A program made the position numbers and the translations under genes. The notes under the pieces were generated by a model, which was given only the letters and a program-made list of their open reading frames with translations, had not been told where the DNA came from and made no database searches. This document shows, in pieces, positions 4,946-52,799 of a DNA stretch of 64,000 bases (positions are counted from its first letter, which is position 1; every line of letters begins with the position of its first letter). The DNA comes from Oligoflexia bacterium (GTDB lineage: Bacteria; Bdellovibrionota; UBA1018): the NCBI GenBank assembly GCA_963758495.1, contig CAVWVI010000003.1, forward strand, positions 736,001 through 800,000. Reading direction: 5' to 3'.

Positions 4946-4979
4946 CTTAGTTAAGGTTAGTCAGCTAACCTTAACTAAG
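4946..4979. repeat. Perfect 15-bp inverted repeat with a 4-nt loop
   Basis: cttagttaaggttag-tcag-ctaaccttaactaag. Confidence 0.85.
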
Positions 4980-5697
4980 GATAATCTAAGTTAGGCTTAT
5001 TCACCTTAAACCCCCCTGCTCCATTCGCTGCACAAGCGCCTTGCGCGGCTTCCCGCTTGATATTCACCCAAGGCAACGCGCCTACTCTTGACTTCGCAGT
5101 ATTTCCATAGCGAAATGCCTCGTATTTCATGACACAAAAACTTTTTCCCGCTGTCGGTGTTGAGTATGCCTCATTACCGGGCACCGAAATGTAGCCTTCA
5201 GGACATTCTACATTCGATCCCATTGCAGGCATCTGTCCCAGTTGTTGGCCCGCTTGCGCCATTTTGCTACGGGGTTTTCTTTTTAAAGTTTTGCAAATAT
5301 ATTCTTCAGCTTTAGGGAGACCCATGTCTTCACAAATCCTCAGGGTATTTTCAGCGTCAGCAGTATTTTTAAAGGAGACTTCGCCATATCTAAGAAAAGG
5401 TAAAACATACTTTTTCATAAGCTTTCCGTTTACATCGATTTTATGACATAATTCTTCAGCTCCATCTTCTTTCCCCTCTTCAGACAAAAGGTTACAAATC
5501 GCCGCTAACTTCCCATCCGCATCTATGTGGTAATCCAAATTATCTGGGTCACACCAAAACTTTTCCCCATCTGCAGTTTCGAAATAAACCTTCTCTCCAG
5601 CTATTACGTGGGAAAGGTGAACGAGCATGCCACTCATCACGAATGTGCTCAGCACCGACCCATACAAAACTTTATTTTTTAATTTGAATAATCTCAT
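4975..5697 (-). pseudogene. 3'-truncated paralog of the BTB-CLec gene at 7987-9216
   Basis: Collinear with 7987-9216 up to ..ACAANGAG, then an unrelated tail; most of the CLec domain is lost. Confidence 0.8.
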
Positions 5698-5768
5698 AAA
5701 TCACTTTTCTTTCTTTTATTTTCTAATTTTTTCCAAACTCAATTGATCTTGCAATAACGTGTTCAGTT

Positions 5769-6863
5769 TTAAAAATGAGGATCTCGTAATGGCTTATACC
5801 TCATTTTATCGCGCACATGGCCATGTCCACTTGGGGAGCCCTTATTCCAATCCCAATCATTGTGGCAGCGACTACAAGTCATCGCATTACATCCATCAGA
5901 CCGTTCCGTAATCACTCCACAGTGATAACAGGGTCGAAATCTACCTCGGAGATCATCGTTTGAAAGTCTAATTGCTGGAGGCTCCTCGGCACCCAAACGA
6001 AGGAGGTTTTCAAACTCTTTCATTTGTTGTGCATATTGAGAACATGCGCCCTGATGCTCATTTCCGCATCGGATGCATCCTTCCTGCTCGCATAAAAAGC
6101 ACGAGTAAAATGCAGATTTTTCCTGAGGTTGAACGATCCTTCCTCCAGCACAGCCTGCGGTAGGGCAAACTACCCAGCCCATTTGTCGAGCATTCACTCG
6201 ATCCACAATTCTCATTCTGACTTTTTCGACCTAAAATTTTGATCGCCCCTGCTGAGCTAGATACCCAGTGTGGAGAACATTTTTACACCCAGGGCATTGA
6301 TTGAGATCTTCACCATCTCGGTTGACCACCATATCGCAATATCCGGGAGCACAATCTTGACAGAGATAACATGTACAGCCAGCGGGACCGGGCTGTGAGT
6401 GATCTTGATCTATTTGTTCGTCAAAACAAGAGAGACATTGGTTTGTATTTACGGGCTCGATGGGAGCAGATGGAGCATTTGCAGTAGCAATTTCAGCAAA
6501 AGCTAATAATGGAGCTGTCTCGCTGACCTCTGATTGAGAAAATTCTGACGACTTTATCGATGATGTTACCACCGAGAACTTCTGCTGCTGAATTTCCTTT
6601 TCACGTTCATGATAGTAGAATTCCTTGGCCTTCAGATTCATCAGCTTCTTGAGCTGCTTAACATGAGTGATTAAATCCGAATTTTCGTTCTCAATTCGCT
6701 CCCCTTCAAACGAAATCGCGCACTCAGATTTAAGACTCAAAACCTCGCTTAATTTTGATGTAGCCTGACAAAAGCCCAGTTGGGTATCTCCGAATACAAT
6801 TAGGCCCGAGACTACTGATAAGACTAGAATAAATTTTCTTGCTTTCATACTGGACCAGATCAA
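5769..6863 (-). pseudogene. Secreted RBR E3-ligase-like paralog without ankyrins, split by one in-frame TAG at 6231-6233
   Basis: ORFs 6231-6863 and 5769-6215 are in frame (..GRSKF*VEKVRMRIVDR..) and align to 9315-11771 (..GRSGADVEKVRMRIVDR..). Confidence 0.85.
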
Positions 6864-6966
6864 TACACTATTTATTATTAATTATCTATAGAATATTATT
6901 ATTTAATATCAGTAATTAACAATGAAGGACATAGAGTACGGCCTCCGACTTCCCCGAAAGAGAGAC

Positions 6967-6995
6967 TTGACAGGTACTCCTAAAAGGTGTACCAT
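6967..6995 (+). promoter_or_regulatory. Sigma70 promoter of the TA operon with an overlapping palindromic operator
   Basis: TTGACA-17bp-TACCAT; imperfect palindrome GGTACTCCTAAAAGGTGTACC at 6973-6993. Confidence 0.7.
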
Positions 6996-7000
6996 GTATC

Positions 7001-7291
7001 ATGATCACCGTTGTGGAGCTGAGTGAGTTTCTCAATAAACAAATTAAAAAACGTCAAATCCCAGATTTCATTTTGATCAAGCTTCAAGACTGGGTTGAAG
7101 ATGTTGAGAATCGTGGGCTTGAAAGAGTTCGACAAATTCCAGGTTACCATGATGAACCTCTAAAGGGAAAATTGGCTGGTACGAGGTCGATCCGACTTGG
7201 GAAAGGATGGCGAGCTTACTATCAAATTAGAGAGTTCAAACGAATTACAGTTTGGGTGGAAAGGATTGATAAACATGAATATGGTAAATAG
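7001..7291 (+). CDS. RelE/HigB-like toxin
   Basis: 96 aa with PGYHDEPLKGKLAGTRSIRL, upstream of an HTH antitoxin. Confidence 0.8.
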   Translation: MITVVELSEFLNKQIKKRQIPDFILIKLQDWVEDVENRGLERVRQIPGYHDEPLKGKLAGTRSIRLGKGWRAYYQIREFKRITVWVERIDKHEYGK

Positions 7292-7595
7292 AAAAAAAAG
7301 CAAGGCACTCCAAAACTTAGAGGCAGCAACAGGCGGACCAGTAACACTGGGGAAGCTGATTGAAGCAATTCGCTTGGGAGAAGAAAAAACACAGCCTGAA
7401 TTTGCAAAAATTCTTGGGATCTCAAAGTCTCATCTCAATGACATTGAGAAGGGAAGAAAAGTGGTTAGCCCTGACCGTGCAGCACGATTTGCGAGGGCCC
7501 TGGGGTATTCTGAAGAACGCTTTGTTACTCTTTCACTTCAAGGGATAATAGACCACGCAGGTTTAGCTTTCCGCGTAGAATTGAGGTTTGCTTAG
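7275..7595 (+). CDS. HigA-like XRE HTH antitoxin
   Basis: TQPEFAKILGISKSHLNDIEKGRKVVSPDRAARFARALG; start overlaps the toxin 3' end. Confidence 0.85.
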   Translation: MNMVNRKKSKALQNLEAATGGPVTLGKLIEAIRLGEEKTQPEFAKILGISKSHLNDIEKGRKVVSPDRAARFARALGYSEERFVTLSLQGIIDHAGLAFRVELRFA

Positions 7596-7986
7596 CACAG
7601 TCGCTGAATTTTCAGTCAATTTAAAGCAAGCATTGGACTAGCGCACATACGGACTAACCGTCTCAACGTGGCAGACTTTGAAGTTGTGAAATACAAAGGT
7701 GTTCAATTAATTAATCATCCATACTAAAGAACAAAACTATCAAGATACCTTTTTCATTTCTTCTCGAACAGTTTCTCAGATTACCTCTCGTAAAGAGGCA
7801 TCAATCTGTTTTCCAAACAGTGCTTCACAAAGCTTTTCTTTCATACTAACCAGCCAACTCTTTACGAATATCTATCTCGCATCAGCAGATCGGGTGGCAA
7901 AGAGACTACTCTCAAAGCGATGTTAAGAAGCATTGAAGAGGATCCAGTGATCCAAGGGCTCTGCGCGCCCATCTCCTTGCTAGCAC

Positions 7987-9216
7987 CTAGTTCTGAGGGC
8001 TAAAAGCACACCGAAACCCGACAACCGCGTACGAGCCAGAGGCGGAATAGTTCAGAAACGCAGCGAAGACTCCAGCGTTCGTGTCAGCGGACCAGGAACC
8101 ACCCCGCAAGGCGGCCCCGGCATTATACATGTAGATTTTACCCACATTCTGTGTTGAGCTGTATGAACCGAGTGGGGCAAAAAGGAATTTATTCTGACTC
8201 CCCTCTGAGAAATAGGTAGCGTTGTTATATTCCTGCCATATATTCTGTCCTGTTCTTAGATCATCCGATACCCATTCCGATACGTTCCCTGCCATATCCC
8301 AAATCACTTCTCCATTGCTCAATGCGTGCGTCCTTTTATGAGTCCAGTCACTGTGATTAGTCCCAACGTAGGGATTCTCATCTGTGCCCGGAGCTGCGGC
8401 TGCATTTGAATTACTGTTGCCCCGCGATAATTGTCCCGCCCCTACTGCTCCACTACTCCAGTTTGCCGGGGTAGCCTCAATACCTCTTGCAATCGTCATC
8501 CACTCGTCATTCGTGATCAAATGGTATCCTGCTCCATTCGCTGCACAAGCTGCTTGCGCGGCTTCCCGAGCAATATTCACCCACGGCAACGCCCCTACTC
8601 TTGACTTCGCAGTGTATCCTTCGCGAGATGCCTCATACTTCATGACACAAAAACTTGTTCCCGCTGTCGGTGTTGAGTACGTTTCATTACCGGGCACCGA
8701 AATGTAGCCCTCAGGACATTCTACATCCGAACCTATTTTGACGGGTACCTGTCCCAGTTGTTGGCCCGCTTGCGCCATTTTGCTACGAGGTTTCCTTTTT
8801 AAAAGTTTGCAAATATATTCCTCGGCTAAAGGCAATCCCAGATCTTCGCAGATGGTTAATGTATCTTCCCGATCCGCATCATTTTTGAAATTCACTTTTC
8901 CATGTCTAAGGAAGTTCAAAATATATCTCTTGGTAAGTTCTCCATTGACATCCAGCTCGAAAGCGGTCTCTTCAGACTTTCCATCATGAATTTCAGACTC
9001 CGCCATCAGATTGCAAATTCCAGACAACTTCCCATCTGGATCCATGTGATATTCCAAATTATCTGGGTCACACCAAAACTTTTCTCCGTCTGCTGTTTTG
9101 AAGTAAACCTTCTCTCCAGCCATCACTTGAGAAGGTTGAACGACCATCCCACTGATCACGAATGTGCTCAGTGCCAACCCATACAAAACTTTATTTCTTA
9201 ATTCGAATAATTTCAT
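7987..9216 (-). CDS. Secreted BTB/POZ-like + FGE-sulfatase (CLec-fold) protein, putative DGR target
   Basis: Signal peptide (..QVMA|GE); ELDVNGELTKRYILNFLRHGKV resembles KCTD-type BTB; FCVMKYEA, LITNDEW, IWDMAGNVSEWV and RGGSW..VGFRC are FGE/CLec motifs. Confidence 0.8.
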   Translation of the reverse strand: MKLFELRNKVLYGLALSTFVISGMVVQPSQVMAGEKVYFKTADGEKFWCDPDNLEYHMDPDGKLSGICNLMAESEIHDGKSEETAFELDVNGELTKRYILNFLRHGKVNFKNDADREDTLTICEDLGLPLAEEYICKLLKRKPRSKMAQAGQQLGQVPVKIGSDVECPEGYISVPGNETYSTPTAGTSFCVMKYEASREGYTAKSRVGALPWVNIAREAAQAACAANGAGYHLITNDEWMTIARGIEATPANWSSGAVGAGQLSRGNSNSNAAAAPGTDENPYVGTNHSDWTHKRTHALSNGEVIWDMAGNVSEWVSDDLRTGQNIWQEYNNATYFSEGSQNKFLFAPLGSYSSTQNVGKIYMYNAGAALRGGSWSADTNAGVFAAFLNYSASGSYAVVGFRCAFSPQN

Positions 9217-9314
9217 AAATCACTTTTATTTCTTTCTTTTCTCTTTTTTTTTAAACTCAAGTCATCTTTACAATTCATCTTGCAACGACGTGTTCATTTT
9301 TAAAAATGACCGTT

Positions 9315-11771
9315 CTAAAAATGAGGATCTCGCAAGGGTTTGTACCTCATTTTGTCGCGCACATGGCCATGTCCACTTGGGGAGCCCTTATTCCAATCCC
9401 AATCATTGTGGCAGCGACTACAAGTCATCGCATTACATCCATCAGACCGTTCCGTAATCACTCCACAGTGATAACAGGGTCGAAATCTACCTCGGAGATC
9501 ATCGTTTGAAAGTTTAATTACTGGAGGTGCCTCAGCTCCCAACTTTAGAAGCTTTTCAAACTCTTTCATTTGTTCTGCATACTGAGAACATGCGCCCTGA
9601 TGCTCATTTCCGCATCGGATGCATCCTTCCTGCTCGCATAAAAAGCACGAGTAAAATGCAGATTTTTCCTGAGGTTGAACGATCCTTCCTCCAGCACAGC
9701 CTGCGGTAGGGCAAACTACCCAGCCCATTTGTTGAGCATTCACTCGATCCACAATTCTCATTCTCACTTTTTCCACATCAGCTCCTGATCGACCCTGCTG
9801 AGCTAGATACTCTGTATGGAGGATATTCTTACATCCTGGACATTGATTGAGATCTTCTCCGTCTCGGTTGACCACCATATCGCAATATCCGGTAGCACAA
9901 TCTTGACAGAGATAACATGAACAGCCAGCGGGACCCGGCTGTGAGTGATCTTGATCCATTCGTTCGTCAAAGCAAGAGAGACATTGGTTTGTATTTACGG
10001 GCTCGATGGGAGCAGATGGAGCATTTGCAGTAGCAATTTCAGCAGAAGCTAATACTGGAGCTGTCTCGCTGACCTCTGATCGAGGAGCCTCGATCTTGCC
10101 TATAAAGTGCTGCCAGGCTCTTTTCAATCCATATTCTCGACCCTGACTTGAAGAGGAAGCTTCTGTAGATTGAGAAGATTCTGACGATCTTATCGATGGT
10201 GTTGCTACTGGGAGTCTCTGCTCCTGGATTTCCTTCTCACGTTCCTGATAGTAGAATTCCTTGGCCTTCAGATTCATCAGCTTCTTAAGCTGCTTAATAG
10301 GAGCGATTAGATCCGAATTTTCGTTCTCAATTCGCTCCCCTTCAAACGAAATCGCGCACTCAGATTTTAGGTTCAAGATCTCGCTCAATTTGGATGCAGT
10401 TTGAGTGGATGAAAACAATTGCACCCACTTCTCAATCTGAGAACTCCAGCCTTGTCTGGCAACCAGCTCTAGAATTGCTCTGAGTTCGGAAGTTCCAAAA
10501 TACTGTTCCTCTCCCTTTTCTAAAATCAACTGAGCTATTTTAAGATTTCGTGCTTTGCTAGCCCATACCAGTGCCGGGAGACCCTCTTTACCGGGAAATT
10601 TCAAGTCACAATCATCCCTGGTAATGAATGCTGCACCAGATAGGGAAATAGAATCCAAAATAAATTTTATGATCTCTGTTTTCCCTTTTTCGGAAGCCAG
10701 AGTCAGAGGAGTATGGCCACTTGAGTGAGAGAGTAACTTCGGACAAAGTTGCGCCCCCCTGCTTGCTGCGAGCTTCACCATTTCTAGATTTCCTCGCTCA
10801 ATAGCAGACATCAATATCGGTTCGAGAGGTCCTAAATCCGCTCCATGATCTAGCGAAACTGAAATCACGTCCGATCGGTCATTCTCCACAGCCCATTTCA
10901 GAAGTGTGCGACCTTGAAGCCTCTCGTAATCTTTTTGATTCGAGTACGCGCTCTTATTTAGCGGAAAAACTTGGTTCGGATTCACTCCGCGCTCTAAAAG
11001 AATTTTGATAATCTCAAACTGAGAGGATGCGGCTGCCTGAACTAAAGGCGTTCTCCCTCGGCCATCAGGCTGATTCACTAATGCCTGTTCATTGAACTGG
11101 TTTTTTCCAAGAACTCCCTTCAAAGAAAGAAGATATTTGGCTAGATGAACTGAATTTGTTTCGATCGCCCAAGTCAGGATAGAACGATCATGAAAACGAT
11201 CATACTGCTTTGAATCCACATAGGCATTGGAGTCTGCAGGAAACAAAGAATCAGGACGAGCGCCATTTTCTAAACTCAATTTTAAAAATTTGAATTGTTC
11301 CTGCTCTGTTCTAGCAGATACGAGCGATTGCATGAGGGCTGTCCAACCCATGCTGTCCTGATGGTTCATCACCGCTCCTCGCGAAAGCAAAGTCCGCATC
11401 AGTTCAAGTTGACCCTTCTGTGTCGCAGAAAGGAGCGCGGTTCTCCCTTGGTGATCAGCTAAATTGATATCTGCGCCTCTGTCCAAAAGGGATTGCAGAA
11501 CGTCTAATCCGGTCCCAGACTCAATTGCCAAAATCAAGGCAGTCTTTCCATCCTGGTCCGTTTCGTTAACGAATTGGCGAGTGTTCTGATTTTTTTGTTC
11601 TAAGGACGCGAGAAGCTGAATCGCCAAGCTCCGATTTTTGCCCTTAATAGCTACGTGCAGATCATTAAAATTACCTGGAGCATCTCCCTGGCAATAGCCC
11701 AGTTGGGTATCTTCGAATGCAACTAGGCCCGTTATTACTGATAAGACTAGAATAAATTTCCTTGGTTCCAT
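9315..11771 (-). CDS. Secreted ankyrin-repeat + RING1-IBR-RING2 (RBR) E3-ligase-like protein
   Basis: Signal-like N-terminus; ankyrins (GKTALILA, GRTALLSA, GRTPLVQA, GHTPLTLA); RING1 CLSC..CSCYLCQDC..CPGC; IBR WVVCPTAGC..CFLC..CIRC..HQGAC; RING2 RPCYHC..ERSDGCNAMTCSRC. Confidence 0.85.
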   Translation of the reverse strand: MEPRKFILVLSVITGLVAFEDTQLGYCQGDAPGNFNDLHVAIKGKNRSLAIQLLASLEQKNQNTRQFVNETDQDGKTALILAIESGTGLDVLQSLLDRGADINLADHQGRTALLSATQKGQLELMRTLLSRGAVMNHQDSMGWTALMQSLVSARTEQEQFKFLKLSLENGARPDSLFPADSNAYVDSKQYDRFHDRSILTWAIETNSVHLAKYLLSLKGVLGKNQFNEQALVNQPDGRGRTPLVQAAASSQFEIIKILLERGVNPNQVFPLNKSAYSNQKDYERLQGRTLLKWAVENDRSDVISVSLDHGADLGPLEPILMSAIERGNLEMVKLAASRGAQLCPKLLSHSSGHTPLTLASEKGKTEIIKFILDSISLSGAAFITRDDCDLKFPGKEGLPALVWASKARNLKIAQLILEKGEEQYFGTSELRAILELVARQGWSSQIEKWVQLFSSTQTASKLSEILNLKSECAISFEGERIENENSDLIAPIKQLKKLMNLKAKEFYYQEREKEIQEQRLPVATPSIRSSESSQSTEASSSSQGREYGLKRAWQHFIGKIEAPRSEVSETAPVLASAEIATANAPSAPIEPVNTNQCLSCFDERMDQDHSQPGPAGCSCYLCQDCATGYCDMVVNRDGEDLNQCPGCKNILHTEYLAQQGRSGADVEKVRMRIVDRVNAQQMGWVVCPTAGCAGGRIVQPQEKSAFYSCFLCEQEGCIRCGNEHQGACSQYAEQMKEFEKLLKLGAEAPPVIKLSNDDLRGRFRPCYHCGVITERSDGCNAMTCSRCHNDWDWNKGSPSGHGHVRDKMRYKPLRDPHF

Positions 11772-11917
11772 ACTGGATCAGACCCATACACCATTTATTA
11801 TTTAAAATCAGTAATTGACAATGAGGGTTCTCAACTGTTGAGATTCGAGTATCTTAACGTACCTATATATAGATTTATAATGCATTTTCCTCTTAAAAAT
11901 GGTTTTCAATAACATTC

Positions 11918-12346
11918 ATGAGACTCGGAGATTGGGCTGAAAAACAAGGAATTACTTACATGACGGCATGGAGATGGTTCAAGCAGGGCAAAATGCCTGT
12001 GAAGACCATCCAAACGCCCAGTGGTATGATTTTAGTCGAACAAGAGAATGAAGCAGGGACGACGTCTCAACATAAATCAACAGCCATTTATGCACGCGTG
12101 AGCTCTCATGATCAAAAGAAAGATTTAGATGGCCAAGTGGCAAGATTGTCTATGTATGCGGCAAACCACGGACTCGTCGTCACCCAGGTTTTGACTGAGA
12201 TCGGCTCTGGTCTTAATGGAAAACGAAAAAAACTCCTCAGCACACTGGCAGATCAGTCTATCGACGTCATTTTGGTAGAGCACAAAGATCGATTAACGAG
12301 ATTCGGGTTTGAATATATTGAGACCTTACTAGAGATCTCAGTCTAG
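11918..12346 (+). mobile_element. IS607-family serine transposase TnpA, truncated; no tnpB follows
   Basis: N-terminal HTH (WAEKQGITYMTAWRWF), YARVSSHDQK, EIGSGLN, EHKDRLTRFG; premature stop removes the C-terminal helices. Confidence 0.85.
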
Positions 12347-15757: not shown

Positions 15758-15766
15758 AAAATCTCC

Positions 15767-28790: not shown

Positions 28791-30167
28791 CTATTGGCCT
28801 TGAGTTTGGGTTTGTCCTTGGGGTTGTCCTTGAATCTGTAATGACTGCTGTACTTGATTCATAATACTTTGAGTTTGTTGAATTTGTGCATTTTTCTGTT
28901 GCTGCTGTTGTTGCTGCTGTTGTGCTGCGGCTTGTTGCGCATTCTGTATCATTTGCTGGTTCTGTTGTTCTGTTGCCTGTTGATTTTGGGTGTTTTGCTG
29001 CATCTGATCCTGCATCTGTTGCATCATCATCATTTGATTATTCATTCCCATCCCGCCACCCATCATTCCCATTCCACCACCCATCATTCCCATTCCGCCA
29101 CCCATCATTCCCATTCCACTACCCATCATTCCCATTCCGCTACCCATCATTCCCATTCCGCCCATTCCGCCCATTCCGCCCATCAAATTAAAATTACTCT
29201 GGGGATGATTAGTTTGAGAATTCTGAGGATCATCAGCAGAAGAATCTTCCTGTTCTCGACTACTTCCTCTCCCTCCCACAACCTCCACTTGTGGATCTTC
29301 ACTTACTGAATTTGCATTTTGATTATTAGATAGAGATTGAGAACTAACTTGCAAATTACCTTTTAAATTACCTTTTAAATTAGATGAAGAATAAGAACCT
29401 GTGGCCTCTTCGACTTTTGACTCAGACACTCCGGCTCCAGGCGTTTGCGGCACTCCGCTTGAAACAACGGAAGGTACGGCAGGAGATCCTAAAGACTTTG
29501 ATCCTAATTGAGAACTGGATTGACTCGCCATTTTGGAATCATTTTGCTGAGGAGTAGGTTGCATTCCCGTAAGTTGCTGAGATTGAATAGAATTACGCTT
29601 TTGTAGATTCTGTTGTGGTCTATTCTGTTGTGACCGTGCGATGGGAGCGCGTGCCTGTTGTGCGTTTATTTTTTGGACGGCTTCCTTATTTTCTTCTTGA
29701 GCAGCTTCGTAATCACTCTGCTTCTTTTCCTTACTTTGAATAATTTGATCTTGTTGAGCCTTCTCCCTTGCAGCCTGTTGAGCTTTTAGCTGAGCTGCCT
29801 TTGATTTAGCCTCTGCATTCAATTGAATCTGTCGATCGTTCTGTGCCTTCAGCTTTTCTTGCTGCGCTGTTGCTATTGCTTTTGCCTTATCTTGAGCTGC
29901 CTGCAGCTGTTTCTGCTTTGCCGCTTGTTGCTGTTTAAGTTGATTCGCTCGCTCTGCTTCCTGTCGCCGTTTTGCTGCTTGTTGCTGTGCACGCTTTTGA
30001 TTCAGGCGTCTTTCTTGTTGAATTTGCCTACTTCGCTCCCTCGCTTGCTGTTGTTGCATCATTTTTTCTTCTGATGCTATTTCCTCTGCCATGTTATTAT
30101 CCGCCCACGCAGTAGGAATGCTTTGAATGACGAGTAAACAAATCAACAATATTTGATACATATTCAT
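28791..30167 (-). CDS. Secreted low-complexity Q-rich and G/M-rich protein
   Basis: Signal peptide (..AWA|D), Q/A/K coiled coil, (GMMGGGM)n, poly-Q tail. Confidence 0.75.
   Translation of the reverse strand: MNMYQILLICLLVIQSIPTAWADNNMAEEIASEEKMMQQQQARERSRQIQQERRLNQKRAQQQAAKRRQEAERANQLKQQQAAKQKQLQAAQDKAKAIATAQQEKLKAQNDRQIQLNAEAKSKAAQLKAQQAAREKAQQDQIIQSKEKKQSDYEAAQEENKEAVQKINAQQARAPIARSQQNRPQQNLQKRNSIQSQQLTGMQPTPQQNDSKMASQSSSQLGSKSLGSPAVPSVVSSGVPQTPGAGVSESKVEEATGSYSSSNLKGNLKGNLQVSSQSLSNNQNANSVSEDPQVEVVGGRGSSREQEDSSADDPQNSQTNHPQSNFNLMGGMGGMGGMGMMGSGMGMMGSGMGMMGGGMGMMGGGMGMMGGGMGMNNQMMMMQQMQDQMQQNTQNQQATEQQNQQMIQNAQQAAAQQQQQQQQQKNAQIQQTQSIMNQVQQSLQIQGQPQGQTQTQGQ
29044..29183 (-). repeat. 21-bp and 9-bp tandem repeats encoding a G/M-rich tract
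   Basis: About 5 copies of cccatcattcccattcc(g/a)c(c/t)a plus (cccattccg)n. Confidence 0.9.
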
Positions 30168-30218
30168 TCGCCCCTTAAAATTAAATCATCACTTCTCAAC
30201 AGTTACTGACAGTTTTCT

Positions 30219-30325
30219 GTAAACAGTTCCTTTATGGCTATTGATAAGCGCTGTAAGGAGAGAGTTCTGTTGTGCCGTAAAGTCTCTTGGATTCCCGACG
30301 CAACAGGACTCCTTACAGTGCTTAC
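30219..30325 (+). mobile_element. MITE-like element, copy 2
   Basis: gtaaacagttcctttatggc...cttac with the same hairpin; flanks gttttct/gttttcc. Confidence 0.8.
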
Positions 30326-30331
30326 GTTTTC

Positions 30332-31384
30332 CTATTGTGATGATCCTCCTGGTTGCTGTGGCTGCTGCTGTTGTGGTTGCTGCTGCAGTTGTTGCTGCAG
30401 TTGCTGTGCAGCCTGGAGATTTTGGCTAGTTTGAGCAGCCTGCGCAGCTGCTGCCGCTTGTTGACTTTGTTGAAATGTTGCCTGAGACTGAGAGGAATTT
30501 TGAGAATTTGTCTGCTGTTGCTGCTGAATGTTCTGGCCTGCTTGTCCCATTTGCTGAACAACATTTTGTAAATTCATCATATTCATCTGAGATTGATTCA
30601 CCTGGGACTGACCGTTAGACCCAGATATAGAACTGCTACGTGTATTCACTCGCTCAACAGAGTCCTCTTCCTGCCTGGTTACAGATACTTGCTGGGACAT
30701 AGACGGCTGTCTAGTTACAGAAGCAGGCTGATTCATAGTATTATATGAAGTAGCACTATTTGAACTAGCACTATTTGAAAACCTGTTAGCTTGACCCACC
30801 TGCTTTATTGTAGGTGGATTTTTAAATTGGCTAATGTCTCCGCCATTATAAGTATGCTGAGCTTGAATCGCATTACCAGAATTAGTTCCATAAGTACTTG
30901 TATTCCTTGCTTTACCTTCAACGTCTGAATGCTGGGAACCATAAAGTGATTTCTGATGCGACTCAATTTGACTTGCCTTTGCCTTAATAGAGTTACTATT
31001 GGCATTGATTTTTTGACGTAAGTCTACATGGTCGCTGAGTAATTTTCGAAACTGTTTTCCGTCTGTTTTATTTTGCTTACTTAATTTTTGCATTTGAGCT
31101 TCTTTATTTTTAAGCGCCTTAGTTGCTTGTAAATTCTGAGTCTGCATTTTCTTTATAGCAGCTTGATGACTATCAATTTTAGCATTATGATATTTTTTAG
31201 CAAGATACCCTGGCCCATTAAAGGTCGGCTGGGTAGTATTTCCAGAAATCGGAGCATTAGTATCGCAAAATCCACTTTTCTGAAAAACAACGTTCATCAA
31301 AAATAAAATAAAAATTATACCAAACTTCTGGATAAAATTATTTTGTACTTTAGTATTTGAAAATACCCAACTCAAAATACCCAT
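30332..31384 (-). CDS. Secreted or anchored Q/N/S-rich low-complexity protein
   Basis: N-terminal hydrophobic segment, coiled coil, poly-Q C-terminus. Confidence 0.72.
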   Translation of the reverse strand: MGILSWVFSNTKVQNNFIQKFGIIFILFLMNVVFQKSGFCDTNAPISGNTTQPTFNGPGYLAKKYHNAKIDSHQAAIKKMQTQNLQATKALKNKEAQMQKLSKQNKTDGKQFRKLLSDHVDLRQKINANSNSIKAKASQIESHQKSLYGSQHSDVEGKARNTSTYGTNSGNAIQAQHTYNGGDISQFKNPPTIKQVGQANRFSNSASSNSATSYNTMNQPASVTRQPSMSQQVSVTRQEEDSVERVNTRSSSISGSNGQSQVNQSQMNMMNLQNVVQQMGQAGQNIQQQQQTNSQNSSQSQATFQQSQQAAAAAQAAQTSQNLQAAQQLQQQLQQQPQQQQPQQPGGSSQ

Positions 31385-33407: not shown

Positions 33408-33409
33408 AT

Positions 33410-35517
33410 TTATTTATTCTCTTTTGCTTTTTTCTCTTGGTGTTTCTTAATCATTTCTTCTTGAACGTTTCTAGGTACAGGTGAGTACTTCAGGAATTCC
33501 ATCGTAAACTCTCCTTTACCCTGTGTTGCAGACCTTAAATCCGTCGAGTAGCCAAACATTTCACTCAATGGAACTTCAGTCTCAATCACAGCATAACCTT
33601 CGTTCGTTGTACTATTCACAATCACACCACGACGTTGATTAATTTGCCCCATGACGGATCCCTGGAACTCTTCAGGTGCCTGAGTCTCCAACTTCATAAT
33701 GGGCTCAAGAACTGTGGCACCTGCTTTTTCATAGGCTTCACGGAAGCCCATCAAAGCAGCTGTTTTAAATGCTTGCTCTGAAGAGTCCACATCATGACTC
33801 GCTCCATCGTTGATCACTGCACGAACTCCAACGATTGGGAAACCAATAAGACGACCTTCCTTGATTGCCTCCTGGAAACCTTTATCACAAGCAGGAATAA
33901 ATTCACGAGGAATAGATCCGCCTGTAATATCATCGACAAATTCGTAGGTTACAGCAGCATCTGCAGGAAGCGGCTCAATAAATCCAACCACTTTACCAAA
34001 CTGACCTGATCCACCGGTTTGCTTCTTATGAGTGTAATTGAAATCGCCACGCTTGGTGATGGTTTCTCGGAAAGCCACCTGTGGCTTACCTACAATCACT
34101 TCACAATTGTATTCACGCTTAATGCGTTCACAGTAAATTTCTAGATGAAGCTCACCCATTCCGCTAATGATTGTCTGACCGGATTCCTCATCCCGATGAA
34201 CACGTAAAGTAGGATCTTCCTTAGTAAACTTATTCAGAGCCTTTGAGAAATTAGCTTGGCCCGCTTTATCCTTAGGTGCAATCGCAAGTGAAATAACGGC
34301 ATTAGGAATAAACATGGAAGTCATCGTGTACTTAATTTTACCATCTGTAAAAGTATCGCCCGATGCGCAATCCACACCAAACATAGCAACAATGTCTCCA
34401 GCTTGGGCTTCTTCAACGTCGTTCATTTCATCCGCATGCATTTGAGCGAGGCGAGGCACTTTAACTTTCTTATCGTTAGAAGAATTATAGATGACGTCGC
34501 CCTTCTTCACTGTGCCTTGATAAATTCGCATATAAGTCAACTGACCATAGCGACCTTCGTCCAATTTAAATGCCAATCCAACAAATGGAGCAGTTGGATC
34601 AGAACTTAGAACTATTTTAGCTTCGCTATTGCGTTGATCGAGAGCAATATTTTCCTTTTCAGGAGGGCTTGGTAAATAATAGGTGACTGCATCCAAGAGA
34701 AGCTGAACACCTTTGTTCTTGTAAGCAGAGCCGGTCATCACTGGAGTAAAATTCAAGACTGAGTGTCGCTTTACGAATGGCGAGACGAAGCTCATCCACT
34801 GTAATGTCTTGTCCTTCTAAATACTTGTTACCCACCAACCTCATCAAACTCACCGACTGCTGCAATGAGATCTTCTCGATACTTTTTGACATTCGCTCTG
34901 CAATATCTTCTGGAATATTCTCTTCGCGAATCTTCTCACCATTGTCGCCATCAAAATAAAAGGCTCGCATCGTGACTAAATCCACGATCACCCTTAAATT
35001 GATCTTCAGCACCAATAGGGTAGGTAATCAAGTGCGCGTTATGATTTAATTTTTCTCGGAGCATTTTCACGCCACGGAAAGGATTTGCACCTGCGCGGTC
35101 CATCTTATTAACGAAACAGATACGAGGCACTTTATAGCGCTTCATCTGACGATCGACTGTAATAGACTGAGACTGTACGCCTGCTACAGAGCAAAGGACA
35201 AGGACAGCTCCATCTAACACTCGAAGAGATCGCTCTACTTCAATTGTAAAATCTACGTGGCCGGGAGTATCAATTAAGTTAACATTGTAGTCTTTCCACT
35301 CACAATAAGTGGCAGCAGACTGAATCGTGATGCCCTTTTCGCGCTCAAGATCCATAAAGTCCATCGTAGCACCTACGCCCGATTTACCCTTAACTTCCTC
35401 TATCTTATGGATTCTCTTAGTATAAAACAGAACACGTTCGGATAGCGTGGTCTTACCTGAGTCAATGTGGGCAGAAATACCGATATTACGGACCTTATCA
35501 ATCGAAATACGAGCCAT
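33410..35517 (-). CDS. fusA: Elongation factor G, split by several clustered single-base indels (~34750-34995)
   Basis: [49 protein letters not shown] spread across three ORFs. Confidence 0.93.
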
Positions 35518-43731: not shown

Positions 43732-43850
43732 TTGAACCTAACTTTTAACAAGCCTACAAAATTTACGTTAAAAAGCAATGAAAACCCCATTTGGTTTTCC
43801 TACTTGCGAAAATCTTCTCCCCTGCATTATAAGTCTGGGGAGGCAAATTC

Positions 43851-45593: not shown

Positions 45594-45638
45594 ATCAATA
45601 GGACCCCAACTGCAAAAAGTCGGGTCTAAAACTTCTAC

Positions 45639-45739
45639 GTAAGTAGTTCCTTTAGGGGTGTTGACAAGAACTGCCAGGAGCCCTGTTGCGCCGTAAAGAT
45701 TTGGATTCCCGGCGCAATAGGGCTCCTGGCAGTTCTTAC
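45639..45739 (+). mobile_element. MITE-like element, copy 3, with a perfect 8-bp target duplication
   Basis: acttctac|gtaagtagttcc...gttcttac|acttctac. Confidence 0.88.
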
Positions 45740-45743
45740 ACTT

Positions 45744-46727
45744 CTACATTGGATTGAGACCGTGGTTATCCTCTAACTTAATAAGTCTCTTTTTCAAAAT
45801 CTCACGCTGCTTCACTCTTGGATCAACGGTACAGGAATGCGCTTCAGGTCTGTAGTGCTTCTCGCAGAATTCACCGCCACATCCGCATTTGTCCATCAAA
45901 AGATGCTTCTTACACTTTGGAAAACTGCATTTTTGGGAAAAAAACTGATTACTTGAATCGTGAACCGATTGAGAACCTGCATTCACAAAAGCCGTTGAAT
46001 GGGCAACCTCTTCATTTGTCTTTGGAGCTGCTTGTGCAGCTGTCTTTCTAGCTATCTGTGCAGCTACTTCATTTAACTGAAGCAAATACTCTAAATTTAA
46101 ATCACTATCATTTTCGTGATCACCTTCGATTTTTTCGAGCATCTTTTCAGGGTTAAAATCCGTTTCTAATTTTGTATCAATCACTTTTTCAGCTATTGAT
46201 TTTCTTATTTCAAATGAAATTCCAAGCTCATCGTTTCTTAAGCTTTTTTCAACGTCTGACAATAACTCACTAATCATGACAGTAACGTCAGTATTAAACA
46301 TTTGAACATAAGCAATTACTTTGTCTTTTTGCTCGCAAGCCTCTAAGGAGGCCTCGATCAAATCAGCACGTGCCTTTGAAAAATCATAATCCAATGCAAT
46401 CTGCTCTCGTGTAAACTCATCTTCTGAAGCGTTTAAGCGTTTACGCTGCATACTCAGAAGTAGCTGCTCTCGATTCCTATTTTCTTTTAAATGATCATCC
46501 AGAGTCTCATACTCTGAAGGACAGTATTTTTTCATGACTAGATTATGGAACCTTTTAAGCATGATAGCGAAATTCTTACTCAAGTTAAATTGAGCTGCCG
46601 TCATAAAATCATCCGCTTCATCCGCCCACGTCGTGCGAATGGTCTCGTAACCGCACAACGAAAATAAAAGTAGACCGATGAAAAAACTCGAAAAAGATTT
46701 TCCTTTTAAAACAGACTGAAATTTCAT
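45744..46727 (-). CDS. Secreted helical protein with a C-terminal AN1-type zinc finger
   Basis: Signal peptide (..TWA|D); CSFPKCKKHLLMDKCGCGGEFCEKHYRPEAHSC. Confidence 0.8.
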   Translation of the reverse strand: MKFQSVLKGKSFSSFFIGLLLFSLCGYETIRTTWADEADDFMTAAQFNLSKNFAIMLKRFHNLVMKKYCPSEYETLDDHLKENRNREQLLLSMQRKRLNASEDEFTREQIALDYDFSKARADLIEASLEACEQKDKVIAYVQMFNTDVTVMISELLSDVEKSLRNDELGISFEIRKSIAEKVIDTKLETDFNPEKMLEKIEGDHENDSDLNLEYLLQLNEVAAQIARKTAAQAAPKTNEEVAHSTAFVNAGSQSVHDSSNQFFSQKCSFPKCKKHLLMDKCGCGGEFCEKHYRPEAHSCTVDPRVKQREILKKRLIKLEDNHGLNPM

Positions 46728-46925
46728 TTTTTACTCCCACAACAGATTTACTAACTGCGTCAATACCTTAAAAAACTAGGAATGCCAATTTTTTTTCAAT
46801 TCTTTTCCAATCCTTTTAAAAACAAATTAAAAATTTCATTTCCTATCGATTCAGCCCCTCACGAAATGTGTCATTTGTGATACAAAGTAAAGATTCTAAT
46901 CTCCTAACATCTCAAACGGAGCCCT

Positions 46926-49160: not shown

Positions 49161-49212
49161 AATATTTTATTTTGCCACTTGCATTCGTCCAAAAGAGAAT
49201 ATATAAATGGTT

Positions 49213-49320
49213 CATATTTTGGGTTTTCATGGGTACCCCACTTCCCCCCCACACACTGAATGTGGTACCCGTGGCTATAAAGGACCCGGAGGCTAGTTCC
49301 TCCGGGTCCTTTATTTTTTT
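49213..49320 (+). ncRNA. Candidate small RNA
   Basis: Promoter TTGCAT-17-TATAAA (49179-49207), stem with a C-rich loop, then a strong terminator. Confidence 0.45.
49277..49320 (+). terminator. Intrinsic terminator
   Basis: ataaaggacccggagg-ctagtt-cctccgggtcctttat followed by a T run. Confidence 0.9.
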
Positions 49321-49398
49321 ATAAAATCAACTATTTCCCCATCTTATCGTAACCATTTGGCTTTTGCCCTTCCTGTAAGGCAAAATCTTTCCATATAT

Positions 49399-49434
49399 GT
49401 AAACAGTTCCTTTAGGACTCCTTACAGCGCTTAC
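49399..49434 (+). mobile_element. Internally deleted MITE (36 bp) with a 7-bp duplication
   Basis: catatat|gtaaacagttcctttaggactccttacagcgcttac|catatat. Confidence 0.8.
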
Positions 49435-49463
49435 CATATATCCAATTGTGGTATTCTTAAGCC

Positions 49464-50084
49464 ATGTCTAAAAATACGCCTAATCATCTTCAGGGTGTTC
49501 AAGTCCTTTTCATCTTTCTATCATTAAGCATCACAAGCACTCACACCTGGGCAAATGAATCAAACCCAACTCCGCCACTCCCCGCACTCGATGACGAAGG
49601 ACAAGCCGAATTACTCCAATACAAGGAGAATCTAAAAAACCAAATCACTCCTCTGAATCGTTTAAACCCACTCAGTCCCGACTTTAATAAAAATCAGGCT
49701 CCTACCCCTGGCATTTCGCAAATCTCGGATCAACTGCAACAACTCTCTCCTCGAATCGAGGAGCTATTAAAAAACCCCAGCCTACAAGGTATTCTCCGAA
49801 TCTCTTCGGACCCCGACTTAGCCAACAAGACAAAAGAAATCCTCAACCATCCAGACAGACTCCGTCTTATTTATGCGCAAATGGGTTGGCTCATTTTTTT
49901 CTTTCTTTTCCGAACATGGAGATCCTCTAAACTATCTCATGGCCAATGGATCCGTAGCCTTTGGCTAAAATTTTGGACTCTCCTCCTCTATGTAACAGTG
50001 ACGGGATTAATTATTCCGGGATTGATATTAGGTGATTTATACAAACAATGGCTTACCCTTGCGTATCATGCCGCTTTTCGATAG
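49464..50084 (+). CDS. Hypothetical membrane protein
   Basis: Signal peptide plus two C-terminal transmembrane segments. Confidence 0.6.
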   Translation: MSKNTPNHLQGVQVLFIFLSLSITSTHTWANESNPTPPLPALDDEGQAELLQYKENLKNQITPLNRLNPLSPDFNKNQAPTPGISQISDQLQQLSPRIEELLKNPSLQGILRISSDPDLANKTKEILNHPDRLRLIYAQMGWLIFFFLFRTWRSSKLSHGQWIRSLWLKFWTLLLYVTVTGLIIPGLILGDLYKQWLTLAYHAAFR

Positions 50085-50836
50085 TTCTGGGCATTCAGGT
50101 GATGCCTTCTTAAAAGCCTTAGAAAATTACTACGATCTAACTTCGCTTCACGTGCAGCGGCGGAAACATTCCCATGATTGCGATTTAAAATTGAAACTAA
50201 ATATTCTTGTTCAAATGTGTCAGACCATCTCCTTTTATACTGAGTAAAGCTGAGATCACTTTTTTCAATAGCATTTTGATCCGACCGTACTAGCCGCAAC
50301 AAGGGTCCTTGTGTCTGGCCCTGCTGACCTTCAGGCTGACTTTGAAGCTGACCTTCAAGTTGACCTTCAAGTTGAGAAGACGAAGGAGGAGCAGCCGACC
50401 CACGAGCTTCCATTTCCTGAAGTCTGGTTTGCAGCATTTTGATCAGCTCTTGTGAAGAATGATCTGATAGATATTTATCATAGCATCGACTCACAGCTTC
50501 GCTGAGTTCACCTAAATCAAAAGGTTTCTCAAAAAAGTCAGAAACGCCACATCGGAACGCTTTTACCGCCAGTTGTGAATCATGATTTTGGGTAGTCACA
50601 ATAATTTTGACGTGGGGATGACTTTGATTCAATTGCTTGACCCAAGCAAAACCACTTGAGGGGTGCGCATTCAATTCCAAAATGAGAATATTCAGCTCTC
50701 GACCTTCGACAAAAAAAGGCTGAGCTTCATCTCTATTGGCAGCAAACCACACCTCATGCCCATCTTGAACTAGCTTGGAATGCAAAAGCTGACTAAGAGA
50801 TTTTTCCTGTTCTACCACTAAAATACGAGCCTTCAT
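50066..50836 (-). CDS. Atypical response regulator (receiver + Fis-type HTH, no AAA+ domain)
   Basis: Receiver fold at the N-terminus; GNVSAAAREAKLDRSNFLRLL. Confidence 0.85.
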   Translation of the reverse strand: MKARILVVEQEKSLSQLLHSKLVQDGHEVWFAANRDEAQPFFVEGRELNILILELNAHPSSGFAWVKQLNQSHPHVKIIVTTQNHDSQLAVKAFRCGVSDFFEKPFDLGELSEAVSRCYDKYLSDHSSQELIKMLQTRLQEMEARGSAAPPSSSQLEGQLEGQLQSQPEGQQGQTQGPLLRLVRSDQNAIEKSDLSFTQYKRRWSDTFEQEYLVSILNRNHGNVSAAAREAKLDRSNFLRLLRRHHLNAQNYRKAA

Positions 50837-51276
50837 CTCTTCTCCCCCAAAGTATCGTATTATTTTTATCGGAAATAGTGTGTCGGAACTTGAGTGCAGA
50901 AATTATTTTATCGAATCGCTTCATTTTACCGTCAAAATCGCATCAAAATGTTGTGATTCCTTGCCACTTATGATGGGAATAGGTTGTGGTCCAAGAAAAA
51001 AAACTCAGCCATCGGCAATTACAGATATTAGAAATTATTAATTAAAACAGTAAGTTGTACACCTCTGAACTGCTGCAAAAAACGTATTCAAATTATCATT
51101 CCGAAGTGTCGACGAAACAGAATACAAAAAGGCGATTCTTCTTTTTTATGAACGTAATAATATTTCTGCATTTAAGAAAATCTTTTTAGAGCAATCAGAA
51201 ATTGCAGTACGAAATTACTTTAGAAGTCGAGCTTAGAAGTCTGATTTGTATTCGAAACTTTAATTTAAACTTTAAA

Positions 51277-51711
51277 CTACCTCAACACTCCGCCCGATTC
51301 ATGAGCGGGCTCAATCCATTTCACAGCAATGGCTTGCGCAAGAACCTGTCCTTCCATTCCATCGTCTGAACACTCAGGGGTTGAATAGGTTTCTTGTCGC
51401 CCATCCTCTAGAAATACCACTGACTTAAGATCAATAACCGCATCCCCTCCCTTTTCCTTTGCCATGTGAATTAGATCGCGAGCTGCTTTATTGAAATAAT
51501 TTTGACAGAGTTCGGCTTCTTCGCGGGCTGGATCCAGTGAAGGGTAATTCACTTTAGCTCGCACGAGACCTAAAGTTTTGTAGGAACGCTTTACATTACC
51601 GATGAAAGCTGCCTCTTTTGGAAAAGAGTACACTTTTTTAGAAGTTGAGGGAAGAGTACTGCACGCTACAATCCCAACCACCCCAATGAGAGACAAGAGT
51701 CTGAGCATCAT
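51277..51711 (-). CDS. Hypothetical lipoprotein (possibly YbjQ-like)
   Basis: Lipobox IVAC; AKEKGGDAVI. Confidence 0.65.
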   Translation of the reverse strand: MMLRLLSLIGVVGIVACSTLPSTSKKVYSFPKEAAFIGNVKRSYKTLGLVRAKVNYPSLDPAREEAELCQNYFNKAARDLIHMAKEKGGDAVIDLKSVVFLEDGRQETYSTPECSDDGMEGQVLAQAIAVKWIEPAHESGGVLR

Positions 51712-51920
51712 AAGAAAAGTCTAACACAAGAAGCTAAAACATGAAGAATAAAGTTTTTTACTTTATATTTAATATTTTTGCCATATTTTTTTCCAGATGT
51801 AAACTCTTTAGATAGGTTTATTCTTCAAAAGTAGTCCTACTATATACTAACAATATGTAATTATTTATTTTTCTCCATGGCCTCCTACTTGCAATCACAC
51901 CAGCATTCGAGGAGCGAAAT

Positions 51921-52799
51921 ATGAAGAGATATCATGCGATCACATTAGGAATAATTTTAGTGAACTTCTCTACAATACTTGCTTCTAATGTGGTTTCGGC
52001 TGCACCAGAAAATAATTTTGAAATTCAAGGCATGCGTGTGCAGATCTCTGGTCCTGGGGCCACTGAAAATGAGGTTCGAAATGTGCGGGATCGAGTGAAG
52101 GGTCCCTGGCTGAATCATCTACTTGAAGACAAGCATAGAATGAATCAGATTGATGCTACTAGTCAGGCTGAAATTTGTCCTATCTGTTTAGACGAGATAC
52201 AGGGCAAGGATCTGATGTTGACTCCGTGTAATCATGTGTTTTGCAGCCCCTGTATTACCCAGGCTCTCGATAATCAACAGAAGTGCCCGGCATGTCGTCG
52301 AGAGCTTGTAAATTCCAAGGAACTCCAACCTTTCAGGTACACTCCTGGTGAGGAAGTGGAATTGGCACTTGAGATTAATATTCCTAATTTCGACGACCTA
52401 CTCACTCCTGAGTTTGCGGCACTTGGAGTCATGTACGAGGTGGAAGGCTTGATGTGGAGTGGGGTTGCAAAACGGCAAGGTTTTTGGAGAAGGCTTCTAC
52501 GCGAGAGTATCTGGACAATGAATTACGAGGATGCAACACGGTTTTGTCGAGATTTGGGAAGAGGAGCAAGATTGCCCACTCGGGAAGAGTATAGAGCTTT
52601 GAAAAGAGTGCTGGGGGGTCAAAATCGTTATAATCCTCGCATAATCTCAGATATGGTGGGCAATGGCTTTTGGTCGTCTTCAGTCGACCCCGACTTTCCT
52701 TCCAACTACGCCTATGAATTCAATGGCAGTACTGGTGTCAGTGGCAGCTTTGGCATGAGTCGTAAGCGTGCCGTCCGGTGCATATTGCCAGCGCGTTGA
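51921..52799 (+). CDS. Secreted C3HC4 RING + DUF1566-like CLec protein, putative DGR target
   Basis: GAGGAG RBS; signal peptide; CPICLD..PCNHVFCSPC..CPACR; GLMW..A..FC..RLPTREE..FWSSS..AVRC. Confidence 0.82.
   Translation: MKRYHAITLGIILVNFSTILASNVVSAAPENNFEIQGMRVQISGPGATENEVRNVRDRVKGPWLNHLLEDKHRMNQIDATSQAEICPICLDEIQGKDLMLTPCNHVFCSPCITQALDNQQKCPACRRELVNSKELQPFRYTPGEEVELALEINIPNFDDLLTPEFAALGVMYEVEGLMWSGVAKRQGFWRRLLRESIWTMNYEDATRFCRDLGRGARLPTREEYRALKRVLGGQNRYNPRIISDMVGNGFWSSSVDPDFPSNYAYEFNGSTGVSGSFGMSRKRAVRCILPAR

Follow-up and report, generated by a model that had tools for sequence, protein, structure and literature searches.

Signal-bearing RBR, RING and BTB-like proteins suggest a eukaryote-directed effector set in a clade of Bdellovibrionota

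Introduction

Why would a bacterium encode proteins that join an export signal to modules of the eukaryotic ubiquitin pathway? The question is raised by a 64,000-nucleotide stretch of an Oligoflexia bacterium genome (GenBank assembly GCA_963758495.1, contig CAVWVI010000003.1, positions 736,001 to 800,000; G000:C3:736001-800000; hereafter the window), in which a sequence-only reading had listed six loci with signal-peptide-like N-termini and RING-between-RING (RBR), RING, BTB or AN1 modules. That reading proposed that the proteins are exported into a eukaryotic cell, where they use its ubiquitin machinery. None of the three refuting conditions set out with the proposal (unconfirmed domains, no predicted signal peptides, a chimeric contig) was borne out, the BTB domain being confirmed by fold only. 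The proposal is supported by the domains found here, by the enrichment of signal-peptide-like starts and by the lack of a match to an own ubiquitin-conjugating enzyme (E2) or ubiquitin, and we infer, with a probability of roughly 0.7, that the genes form a lineage-wide effector set of ligases and adaptors aimed at the eukaryotic cell.

Bacterial mimics of ubiquitin ligases (E3) are already known (PMC4209131, PMC12591485, PMC13720258). Domman et al. (2014; PMC4209131) call the Chlamydiae the sole bacterial lineage with BTB; the terms 'IBR' and 'signal peptide' are absent from the accessible text of that paper, as are 'RING finger' and 'Bdellovibrio' from that of PMC3482391. A review (PMC13720258, October 2026) states that bacterial counterparts of the HECT, RBR, RCR and RZ ligases 'have not yet been identified', and our literature search, with most subscription journals and supplements outside it, returned no contrary report of a bacterial RBR. 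The novelty lies in the RBR class and its lineage, in a conserved RBR-BTB gene pair, in a Deltex-PARP fusion and in a link to diversity-generating retroelements (DGRs).

Results

In the intact RBR gene of the window, which also encodes ankyrin repeats (ANK-RBR), RING1, IBR and RING2 stand in the canonical order with their zinc ligands. The IBR of this gene scores 19.4 bits, under the Pfam cut-off of 24.3, and that of a copy at 5769-6215 reaches 33.1 bits. Searched against the PDB, a profile of 11 RBR sequences matched ARIH2 with E 5e-18 across 198 of 223 positions, followed by HOIL-1, ARIH1, Parkin and HOIP, and the structural model (predicted local distance difference test score, pLDDT, 71) retrieved the same eukaryotic RBR proteins in Foldseek, at TM-scores that are low, as the flexibility of a three-domain chain would lead one to expect. 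The catalytic RING2 cysteine, aligned to the GCNHM motif of ARIH2, is invariant in all 11 alignment rows and is also present in all eight further loci listed; in the same rows the RING1, IBR and first-site RING2 cysteines are invariant or nearly so, and family 1 has a cysteine at the RING1 position where C3HC4 normally has histidine. The family is under purifying selection, with ratios of nonsynonymous to synonymous substitution rates (dN/dS) of 0.14-0.17 in three of six pairs, the non-saturated ones. Domain order, zinc ligands, the register of the catalytic cysteine with ARIH2 and the fold are features shared with eukaryotic RBR ligases (ARIH1/2, HOIL-1, Parkin, HOIP, RNF216). Unlike these, the bacterial family has a predicted signal peptide and a RING2 without the second-site cysteines and histidine, and is encoded beside a putative BTB receptor; no Ariadne or ubiquitin-like (UBL) regulatory domain was detected in its proteins.

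As hallmarks of RING domains we used the E2-contact positions and the basic linchpin. The RING of the window, which scores 43.9 bits for zf-RING_2 (cut-off 27.3) and exceeds five Pfam cut-offs, has the Ile and Pro of the E2 contact as well as Arg at the linchpin position. Thirteen of the 14 RINGs tested fit the pattern, with both tested E2-contact positions in 13/13 and the basic linchpin in 10/13. The AN1 finger matches zf-AN1 at 30.2 bits (cut-off 27.9) and has its ligands (C-x4-C ... C-x-C-x4-C-x2-H-x5-H-x-C); among 3871 candidates of similar length the protein has no relative besides itself, and its protein atlas matches (0.78-0.79) serve as leads only.

RBR, RING and AN1 thus stand by profiles, and the BTB domain named with them by fold, with no Pfam match in the window protein and no BTB chain at E<=1 when a 10-sequence alignment profile was searched against the PDB. 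All six weak phmmer matches are to KCTD5/17 (E 0.15-0.57). A model with pLDDT 64 matched KCTD17 (E 7e-4, probability 1.0), KCTD9 and KCTD5 in Foldseek, and in an independent fold search (VIA; 48,161 chains) the top rows were BTB/Skp1 folds, the best with Z 8.1, rmsd 3.1 and 87 aligned residues, a Z near 8 being a value that alone can mean a common arrangement. There was no usable protein atlas match. KCTD5, KCTD9 and KCTD17, the best matches by sequence and by Foldseek, are Cullin-3 adaptors with which the bacterial protein shares only 19-26% identity, and Cullin-3 binding by the modelled domain is putative. Pfam further assigns C-type-lectin folds that the first reading had overlooked to the C-termini of two proteins, FGE-sulfatase in the BTB protein and Lcl_C in the RING protein.

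All six loci do locate to ubiquitin-type modules, but only four are intact genes (ANK-RBR, BTB-lectin, AN1 and RING-lectin), the other two making up a decayed tandem duplicate of the ANK-RBR and BTB-lectin genes (Table 1). Positions 5015-6928 are 85-91% identical to parts of 8528-11827, and the decayed RBR copy has a dN/dS of 0.17 against the intact RBR core, which suggests either that the copy was under selection until recently or that its stop reflects an error in a base. The unit also survives as a third remnant, with heavy deletions, at G000:C3:865249-865711 (L021), where a mid-RBR piece runs into a lectin tail whose variable segment is different.

The window is a sample of a larger repertoire. 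In G000, as we call its genome (3.66 Mb in five contigs, completeness 92.1%, contamination 2.1%; other G-numbers denote genomes of the same order, 114 in total), we found 15 zf-RING_2 matches, seven RBR-profile matches in two families (ANK-RBR and RBR-Lcl_C), six BTB-profile matches and one F-box-FGE protein (F-box 21.1 bits, cut-off 20.5). An 864-residue protein combines a signal peptide, WWE, RING-H2, Deltex C-terminal (DTC), ARTD15_N and PARP catalytic domains, and is predicted to be a Deltex-type ligase fused to an ADP-ribosyltransferase. Its Deltex part shares 36-51% identity with proteins that mostly carry eukaryotic labels, and none of the 15 relatives found for this part is listed with a PARP domain; the best named matches are animal (38-51%), a result that identifies no donor. 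Ank_2 gave 81 matches in G000, the highest of 25 genomes tested (next 35). Other expanded signal-bearing families (L127-L131, L138, L143) comprise seven protein kinases (four scanned) and eight HEAT-repeat proteins (one scanned), together with ankyrin-AAA and PT-HINT polymorphic toxin-like proteins. Neither U-box nor the Pfam family BTB_2 matched in G000, in searches where no positive control matched, and motif scans for USP, OTU, Ulp1, HECT, SET and kelch found nothing; the motifs are insensitive and also missed the kinases and the PARP domain found by Pfam.

By eye, two more G000 genes have a RING1-like and a RING2-like unit without the middle domain. Genes in which RING1-like is followed directly by RING2-like (GCN motif, second-site cysteines kept) and then Lcl_C lie at L033:1326-2822, L031:1390-2911, L046:3706-5136, L047:4073-5620 and L173:43-1620; judged from sequence, this family is possibly an RBR without IBR. 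In its G020 member (L048) the cysteine is replaced.

Candidate export signals are enriched among the ubiquitin-module proteins. By an in-house rule with controls, 25 of 30 ubiquitin-module open reading frames (ORFs) are predicted to have a signal peptide, compared with 872 of all 3105 ORFs (28%), 2 of 18 cytoplasmic proteins and 0.9/30 after shuffling; the 30 exclude three fragments without an N-terminus (C4:966681, C3:865249 and window 5769-6215). No twin-Arg signal and one lipobox-like sequence occur among the 30, and all six N-termini first noted in the window pass the rule.

The BTB-lectin gene lies directly 3' of ANK-RBR at four places in G000 and also at G107:C142 and G075:C7, so that the pair is kept in three genera. 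Eight of ten BTB matches belong to such units; of the remaining two, one is a fragment next to insertion sequences and the other has no RBR gene before it. RBR genes often stand without a BTB neighbour. Complex prediction for ANK-RBR and BTB gave 0.41, compared with 0.00 for the best of three controls (partner pLDDT 80), with predicted contacts agreeing in at least 100% of the smaller set. Of 157 solved pairs, 116 reached the mark used, only 18 of them at 0.60 or under; of 215 mismatched pairs, 2 did so, both at 0.60 or under. The model lends weak support to a direct complex. Eukaryotic Ariadne RBRs act together with cullin-RING ligases, and PDB titles of the RBR fold matches pair the two; given this precedent, the gene pairing could be explained by direct binding or by joint use of host Cullin-3.

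Across the 114 genomes, RING matches occur in ten, mostly of one clade, RBR-profile matches in seven and BTB-profile matches in three. A ribosomal-protein tree of 29 selected genomes (11 positive, 18 negative; G074 gave no marker), built with FastTree and tested with the Shimodaira-Hasegawa-like approximate likelihood ratio test (SH-aLRT), unites G000, G044, G085, G086, G107, G108, G008, G075 and the RING-negative G076 (FastTree 0.99, SH-aLRT 94). The IBR-positive G020 and G041 adjoin this clade (FastTree 0.946 with the negative G052 inside; SH-aLRT 89.5 without G052), and further negative genomes might nest within it. G060, which is RING-positive with two strong matches (C4:40262 and C4:113382), lies outside the clade and belongs to another family. 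The RING and RBR proteins listed for the relatives mostly have signal-like starts, as judged by eye.

An RBR tree of the best 150 representatives matched by our profile, midpoint-rooted and biased to the query in its sampling, places the window RBR among 70 grouped tips, of which 64 have a one-zinc RING2 and 42 signal-like starts; in a further group, of 32 RBRs that are mostly canonical, one start is signal-like (support of the two groups, 0.865 and 0.948). The records encoding the closest relatives are labelled Bdellovibrionales, Bdellovibrionia or Oligoflexia bacterium, with Bdellovibrionia on 3 of the 20 looked up. In the same tree, a separate group of 15 representatives (P0114, P0124, P0132, P0135, P0076, P0161, P0107, P0126 and neighbours) has 11 signal-like starts and a canonical two-zinc RING2. 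Judged by sequence these are probably RBRs of another bacterial lineage; we take their N-termini to resemble Dependentiae proteins.

Among secretion systems, G000 has a type II secretion system (T2SS) operon in which GspC, D, E, F and G exceed the cut-off and I and K fall under it. Its four secretins belong to this operon, to a pilus locus with PilQ and to two loci of Tad-like type. A single FHIPEP protein, read as flagellar FlhA, is present in each of 25 genomes, and no second FlhA/SctV was found. Markers of type IV (VirB4) and type VI secretion (TssC/VipB) and of a contractile sheath were found in none of five genomes, with controls matched and with Dot/Icm-type systems outside the search. 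The earlier remark that no E2 or ubiquitin gene is visible in the window extends to the genome: UQ_con, ubiquitin and Prok-E2_B had no match in G000 (92% complete), in searches without a matched positive control.

The lectin-fold domains show traces of hypermutation. Their last ~36 codons evolve fastest (dN/dS 0.33-1.28, compared with 0.10-0.31 in the core), and the hypervariable codons of these tails often end in C or T (FGE type 62/72 vs 69/144; Lcl type 140/160 vs 59/104). The skew persists in four-fold codon boxes (0.62 vs 0.41 and 0.75 vs 0.54; control tails 0.53); its p-values are overstated because paralogues are not independent. In a relative, G075, a DGR-type cassette of Avd (bAvd 37.2 bits, cut-off 40), template repeat (1848-1984) and, on the opposite strand, reverse transcriptase (RT; RVT_1 50.3 bits) lies beside a target gene that encodes a RING2-like unit and Lcl_C and is truncated by the contig start and interrupted by a frameshift. 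Of the 39 template adenines, 14 are changed in the variable repeat, compared with 4 of the 98 other bases. The template also matches six further genes of G075 at 67-79%, where 17-25 of 38-39 adenines and 8-19 of 86-93 non-adenine positions are mismatched; of these genes, one has an IBR-profile match under the cut-off, one ankyrins and a RING-like Cys pattern, one an F-box-like stretch seen by eye and unconfirmed by Pfam, and three have no ubiquitin module. Compared with 13 Lcl tails of G000, the same template mismatches at rates of 0.60 (A), 0.40 (C), 0.29 (G) and 0.23 (T), an adenine bias that suggests that the G000 tails descend from DGR targets. A second DGR-type cassette was found in G074.

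No active DGR was found in G000 (92% complete), where five RT matches look group II intron-type by eye. A search with a degenerate pattern for an FGE-type template gave a match in 0 of 114 genomes, a narrow test since it also missed the Lcl-type template of G075. The AAY scan also showed long (AAY-ACY)n simple repeats at G000:C3:655800-668100 and on C4 near 99783.

Discussion

Each candidate effector would combine a Sec-type signal, a ubiquitin-system module (RING, RBR, BTB, F-box, Deltex or AN1) and, usually, an ankyrin or C-type-lectin binding module. The proteins may leave by Sec export and then by T2SS or vesicle release, probably from a bacterium inside the host cytoplasm, a location at which an injection needle would be unnecessary. 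RING proteins would then activate host E2-ubiquitin; an RBR would accept ubiquitin from a host E2 at RING1, load it onto the invariant cysteine of RING2 and transfer it from there to a substrate. The BTB-lectin may be a substrate receptor that partners the co-encoded ANK-RBR or host Cullin-3, and the lectin tails would be diversified by DGR mutagenesis and gene birth and death, altering the targets. The full version of this picture, a Bdellovibrionota clade turned to eukaryotic hosts or prey, exporting active RBR ligases and BTB-lectin receptors by Sec and T2SS while a DGR hypermutates the substrate-binding surface, is one that we hold tentatively, at less than even odds.

Several points weigh against an effector set of host-directed ligases. 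Export, host, ligase activity and substrates are all deduced from genome data, and the BTB assignment is by modelled fold. The RBR family of the window lacks the second RING2 zinc site, with W-x-W-N in place of F-C-W-x-C, and does not keep the histidine two residues after the catalytic cysteine, a position that varies; both features are common, not universal, among RBR ligases. The count of T2SS-type secretins (four) and the single FlhA are constant across the tested genomes; the clade therefore has no dedicated delivery system to mark it. Cys-rich zinc fingers would need to cross an oxidising periplasm and yet stay reducible. At 3.66 Mb, G000 is not reduced, unlike the genomes of many obligate intracellular parasites, and has no TLC-type ATP/ADP translocase, for which 10 of 41 genomes gave partial matches only. 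The E2 and ubiquitin searches had no matched positive control, and no DGR (bAvd, DGR-type RT or template) is found in G000, nor a template repeat among 38 AAY-rich windows.

The reduced RING2 would also suit proteins that enter a eukaryote as decoys, their RING, RBR and BTB modules sequestering host E2-ubiquitin, Cullin-3 or p97/proteasome partners with no productive transfer. AN1 and BTB are binding modules rather than enzymes, and the basic linchpin is missing from 3 of 13 RINGs; yet the catalytic cysteine is invariant in the alignment and in every further locus listed, and fusion to variable binding domains suits substrate targeting better than titration, which makes decoys unlikely. Quite improbable, in our estimate, is another extracytoplasmic task for domains of eukaryotic or giant-virus origin, as Cys-stabilised adhesins or tools against bacterial prey in which the lectin folds do the real work. 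C-type-lectin (CLec)/FGE domains are common surface-binding DGR targets (PMC5758913), several lectin-fold paralogues have no ubiquitin module at all, and the lineage keeps a flagellum, type IV pili and Tad loci; such a task leaves unexplained why six ubiquitin-system modules of unrelated kinds were taken up side by side with their E2-contact and catalytic residues kept, and why 104 of 114 related genomes are without RING matches. That the proteins partner a ubiquitin-like system encoded by the bacterium itself we consider very unlikely: one ThiF-like ORF (C4:183247, by motif) and the incompleteness of the genome leave some room for it, but there is no E2 or ubiquitin match, no such genes stand beside the RBR or RING genes at the listed loci, and signal peptides would take the ligases out of the cytoplasm. 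An assembly artefact with eukaryotic or viral DNA in a bacterial bin, to which frameshifts in ribosomal-protein and EF-G genes and the mostly eukaryote-labelled relatives of the Deltex part might point, has a negligible chance and is already refuted for the families, since the genes are intronless, lie amid bacterial housekeeping genes on all five contigs (the window itself on a bacterial contig of 1.68 Mb with a housekeeping background), have genome-like composition (GC 0.435 and third-position GC3 0.381, vs 0.426 and 0.367 genome-wide) and recur in other genomes of the family and in records labelled Bdellovibrionia, Bdellovibrionales and Oligoflexia.

A host-directed effector set has precedents. 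F-box, BTB, RING and U-box effectors of Parachlamydiaceae (PMC4209131) are alike in fusing E3-recruiting to protein-binding modules, in birth-death expansion and in presumed use of host ubiquitin; those are type III secretion substrates with leucine-rich or tetratricopeptide repeats in obligate intracellular Chlamydiae, whereas the Bdellovibrionota set has Sec-type signals, RBR, Deltex and lectin-fold receptors. SneRING of Simkania (PMC12591485) is likewise a bacterial RING ligase in a cell without its own ubiquitin system. Known intracellular bacteria have one or a few genes for effectors of that type, in contrast to the 15 RING-profile matches of G000, whose RINGs carry signal peptides and lectin-fold or ankyrin partners. 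The Sec route had been thought to differ from the usual effector route; it is less unusual than claimed, as the ankyrin proteins of the Dependentiae member Chromulinavorax (PMC6561590) likewise form a large signal-peptide set (78% there), read as Sec-exported host effectors. That bacterium is host-dependent with a reduced genome, and no ubiquitin-ligase modules are described in the accessible part of the paper.

DGRs with CLec targets (Wu et al. 2018, PMC5758913) share with our cases a C-terminal variable region in FGE-sulfatase or DUF1566/Lcl_C folds, the cassette of Avd, template repeat and RT, adenine-biased differences between template and variable repeats, and remote targets. Their targets, in the accessible text, are tail fibres, surface proteins and signalling proteins, and E3 modules are not among them. 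Unlike those DGRs, the cassettes of G075 and G074 have the RT facing the Avd-template unit on the opposite strand, and G000 has the footprint without a cassette.

If the full picture given above holds, then within the literature searched these RBR ligases would be the first from bacteria and the DGR the first to act on receptors of ubiquitin ligases, linking DGR hypermutation to E3 substrate choice in what would amount to an evolvable library of protein degraders. An RBR family that retains the catalytic cysteine and occurs in 7 of the order's 114 genomes would fill the stated gap, and its stripped-down form, with a one-zinc RING2 and no known autoinhibitory domain, would be of use for studying mechanism. 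Lifestyle becomes testable as well, through a genomic signature and a clade for eukaryote-attacking members of the Bdellovibrionota, a group known mainly as bacterial predators. An alga-invading Oligoflexales bacterium replicates inside Nannochloropsis (PMC12865303), a case from which, by analogy, relatives appear able to enter eukaryotic cells. Together, the data suggest that the clade attacks or lives inside eukaryotic cells and redirects the host machinery for protein destruction.

Coordinates and other features of the window

Table 1 Coordinates of the features discussed; positions refer to the window unless a locus is named.
Feature	Position	Strand	Evidence
ANK-RBR gene: signal peptide, ankyrin repeats, RBR; 818 aa, intact	9315-11771	-	Pfam, alignment, PDB profile, model and fold search
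RING1, IBR and RING2 within ANK-RBR gene	9831-9983; 9588-9713; 9393-9476	-	Pfam and alignment
Predicted catalytic Cys779 of ANK-RBR	9435-9437	-	Alignment
BTB-lectin gene: signal peptide, BTB (KCTD/T1-like, predicted), FGE-type C-type-lectin-fold domain; 409 aa, intact	7987-9216	-	FGE-sulfatase 40 bits; BTB by fold
Predicted BTB domain of BTB-lectin gene	about 8767-9117	-	Fold only
Hypervariable C-terminal segment of BTB-lectin gene, codon pattern like a DGR variable repeat	7987-8106	-	
Decayed RBR copy: ankyrin region deleted, in-frame stop (6231-6233) between RING1 and IBR	5769-6863	-	
Truncated BTB-lectin copy: signal peptide and BTB kept, most of lectin-fold domain gone	4975-5697	-	
HigBA-like toxin-antitoxin pair between the two RBR-BTB unit copies	7001-7595	+	HigB-like E 0.014 (weak), HTH_3 41.7 bits
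Serine resolvase gene at edge of RBR-BTB island	11918-12346	+	Resolvase 57.1 bits
AN1 gene: signal peptide, domain of unknown family, AN1 zinc finger (45831-45929); 327 aa	45744-46727	-	zf-AN1 30.2 bits
RING-lectin gene: signal peptide, C3HC4 RING (52176-52298), Lcl_C lectin-fold domain; 292 aa	51921-52799	+	Pfam
Variable tail of RING-lectin gene, within Lcl_C domain	52668-52799	+	
Genome-wide hairpin repeat, copies	4824-4922; 30221-30325; 45641-45739; 52845-52915	.	
Deltex-PARP fusion	L023:1637-4231 = G000:C1:146136-148730	-	Pfam
DGR cassette (Avd, template repeat, RT on opposite strand) and E3-type Lcl_C target	L155:1-3226 = G075:C26		
DGR-type cassette (Avd, template, RT on opposite strand)	L156 = G074:C418		

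We take the resolvase at the edge of the RBR-BTB island to be of an IS607-like family. The hairpin repeat, of ~100 nt with 28-nt arms, occurs at 64 loci across G000 and had no Rfam match when the window was searched. Hairpins resembling miniature inverted-repeat transposable elements (MITEs) and AT-rich flanks had been noted beside several of the six genes, and both are there: six gene flanks have 67-75% AT and three 51-56%, compared with 58% for the whole window. As a marker of ubiquitin-module genes we rejected hairpin adjacency, since a hairpin lies at most 300 nt from 2 of 30 such ORFs and from 113 of all 3105, and the repeat is thus not specific to them.

EF-G (window 33410-35517) and several ribosomal-protein genes (L085 = G000:C3:896059-899415) are frameshifted, which indicates indel errors in the assembly. 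Two signal-bearing, Gln-rich low-complexity ORFs for which Pfam offers no convincing family, of 458 and 350 aa with a GMGMM repeat, lie at window 28791-31384.

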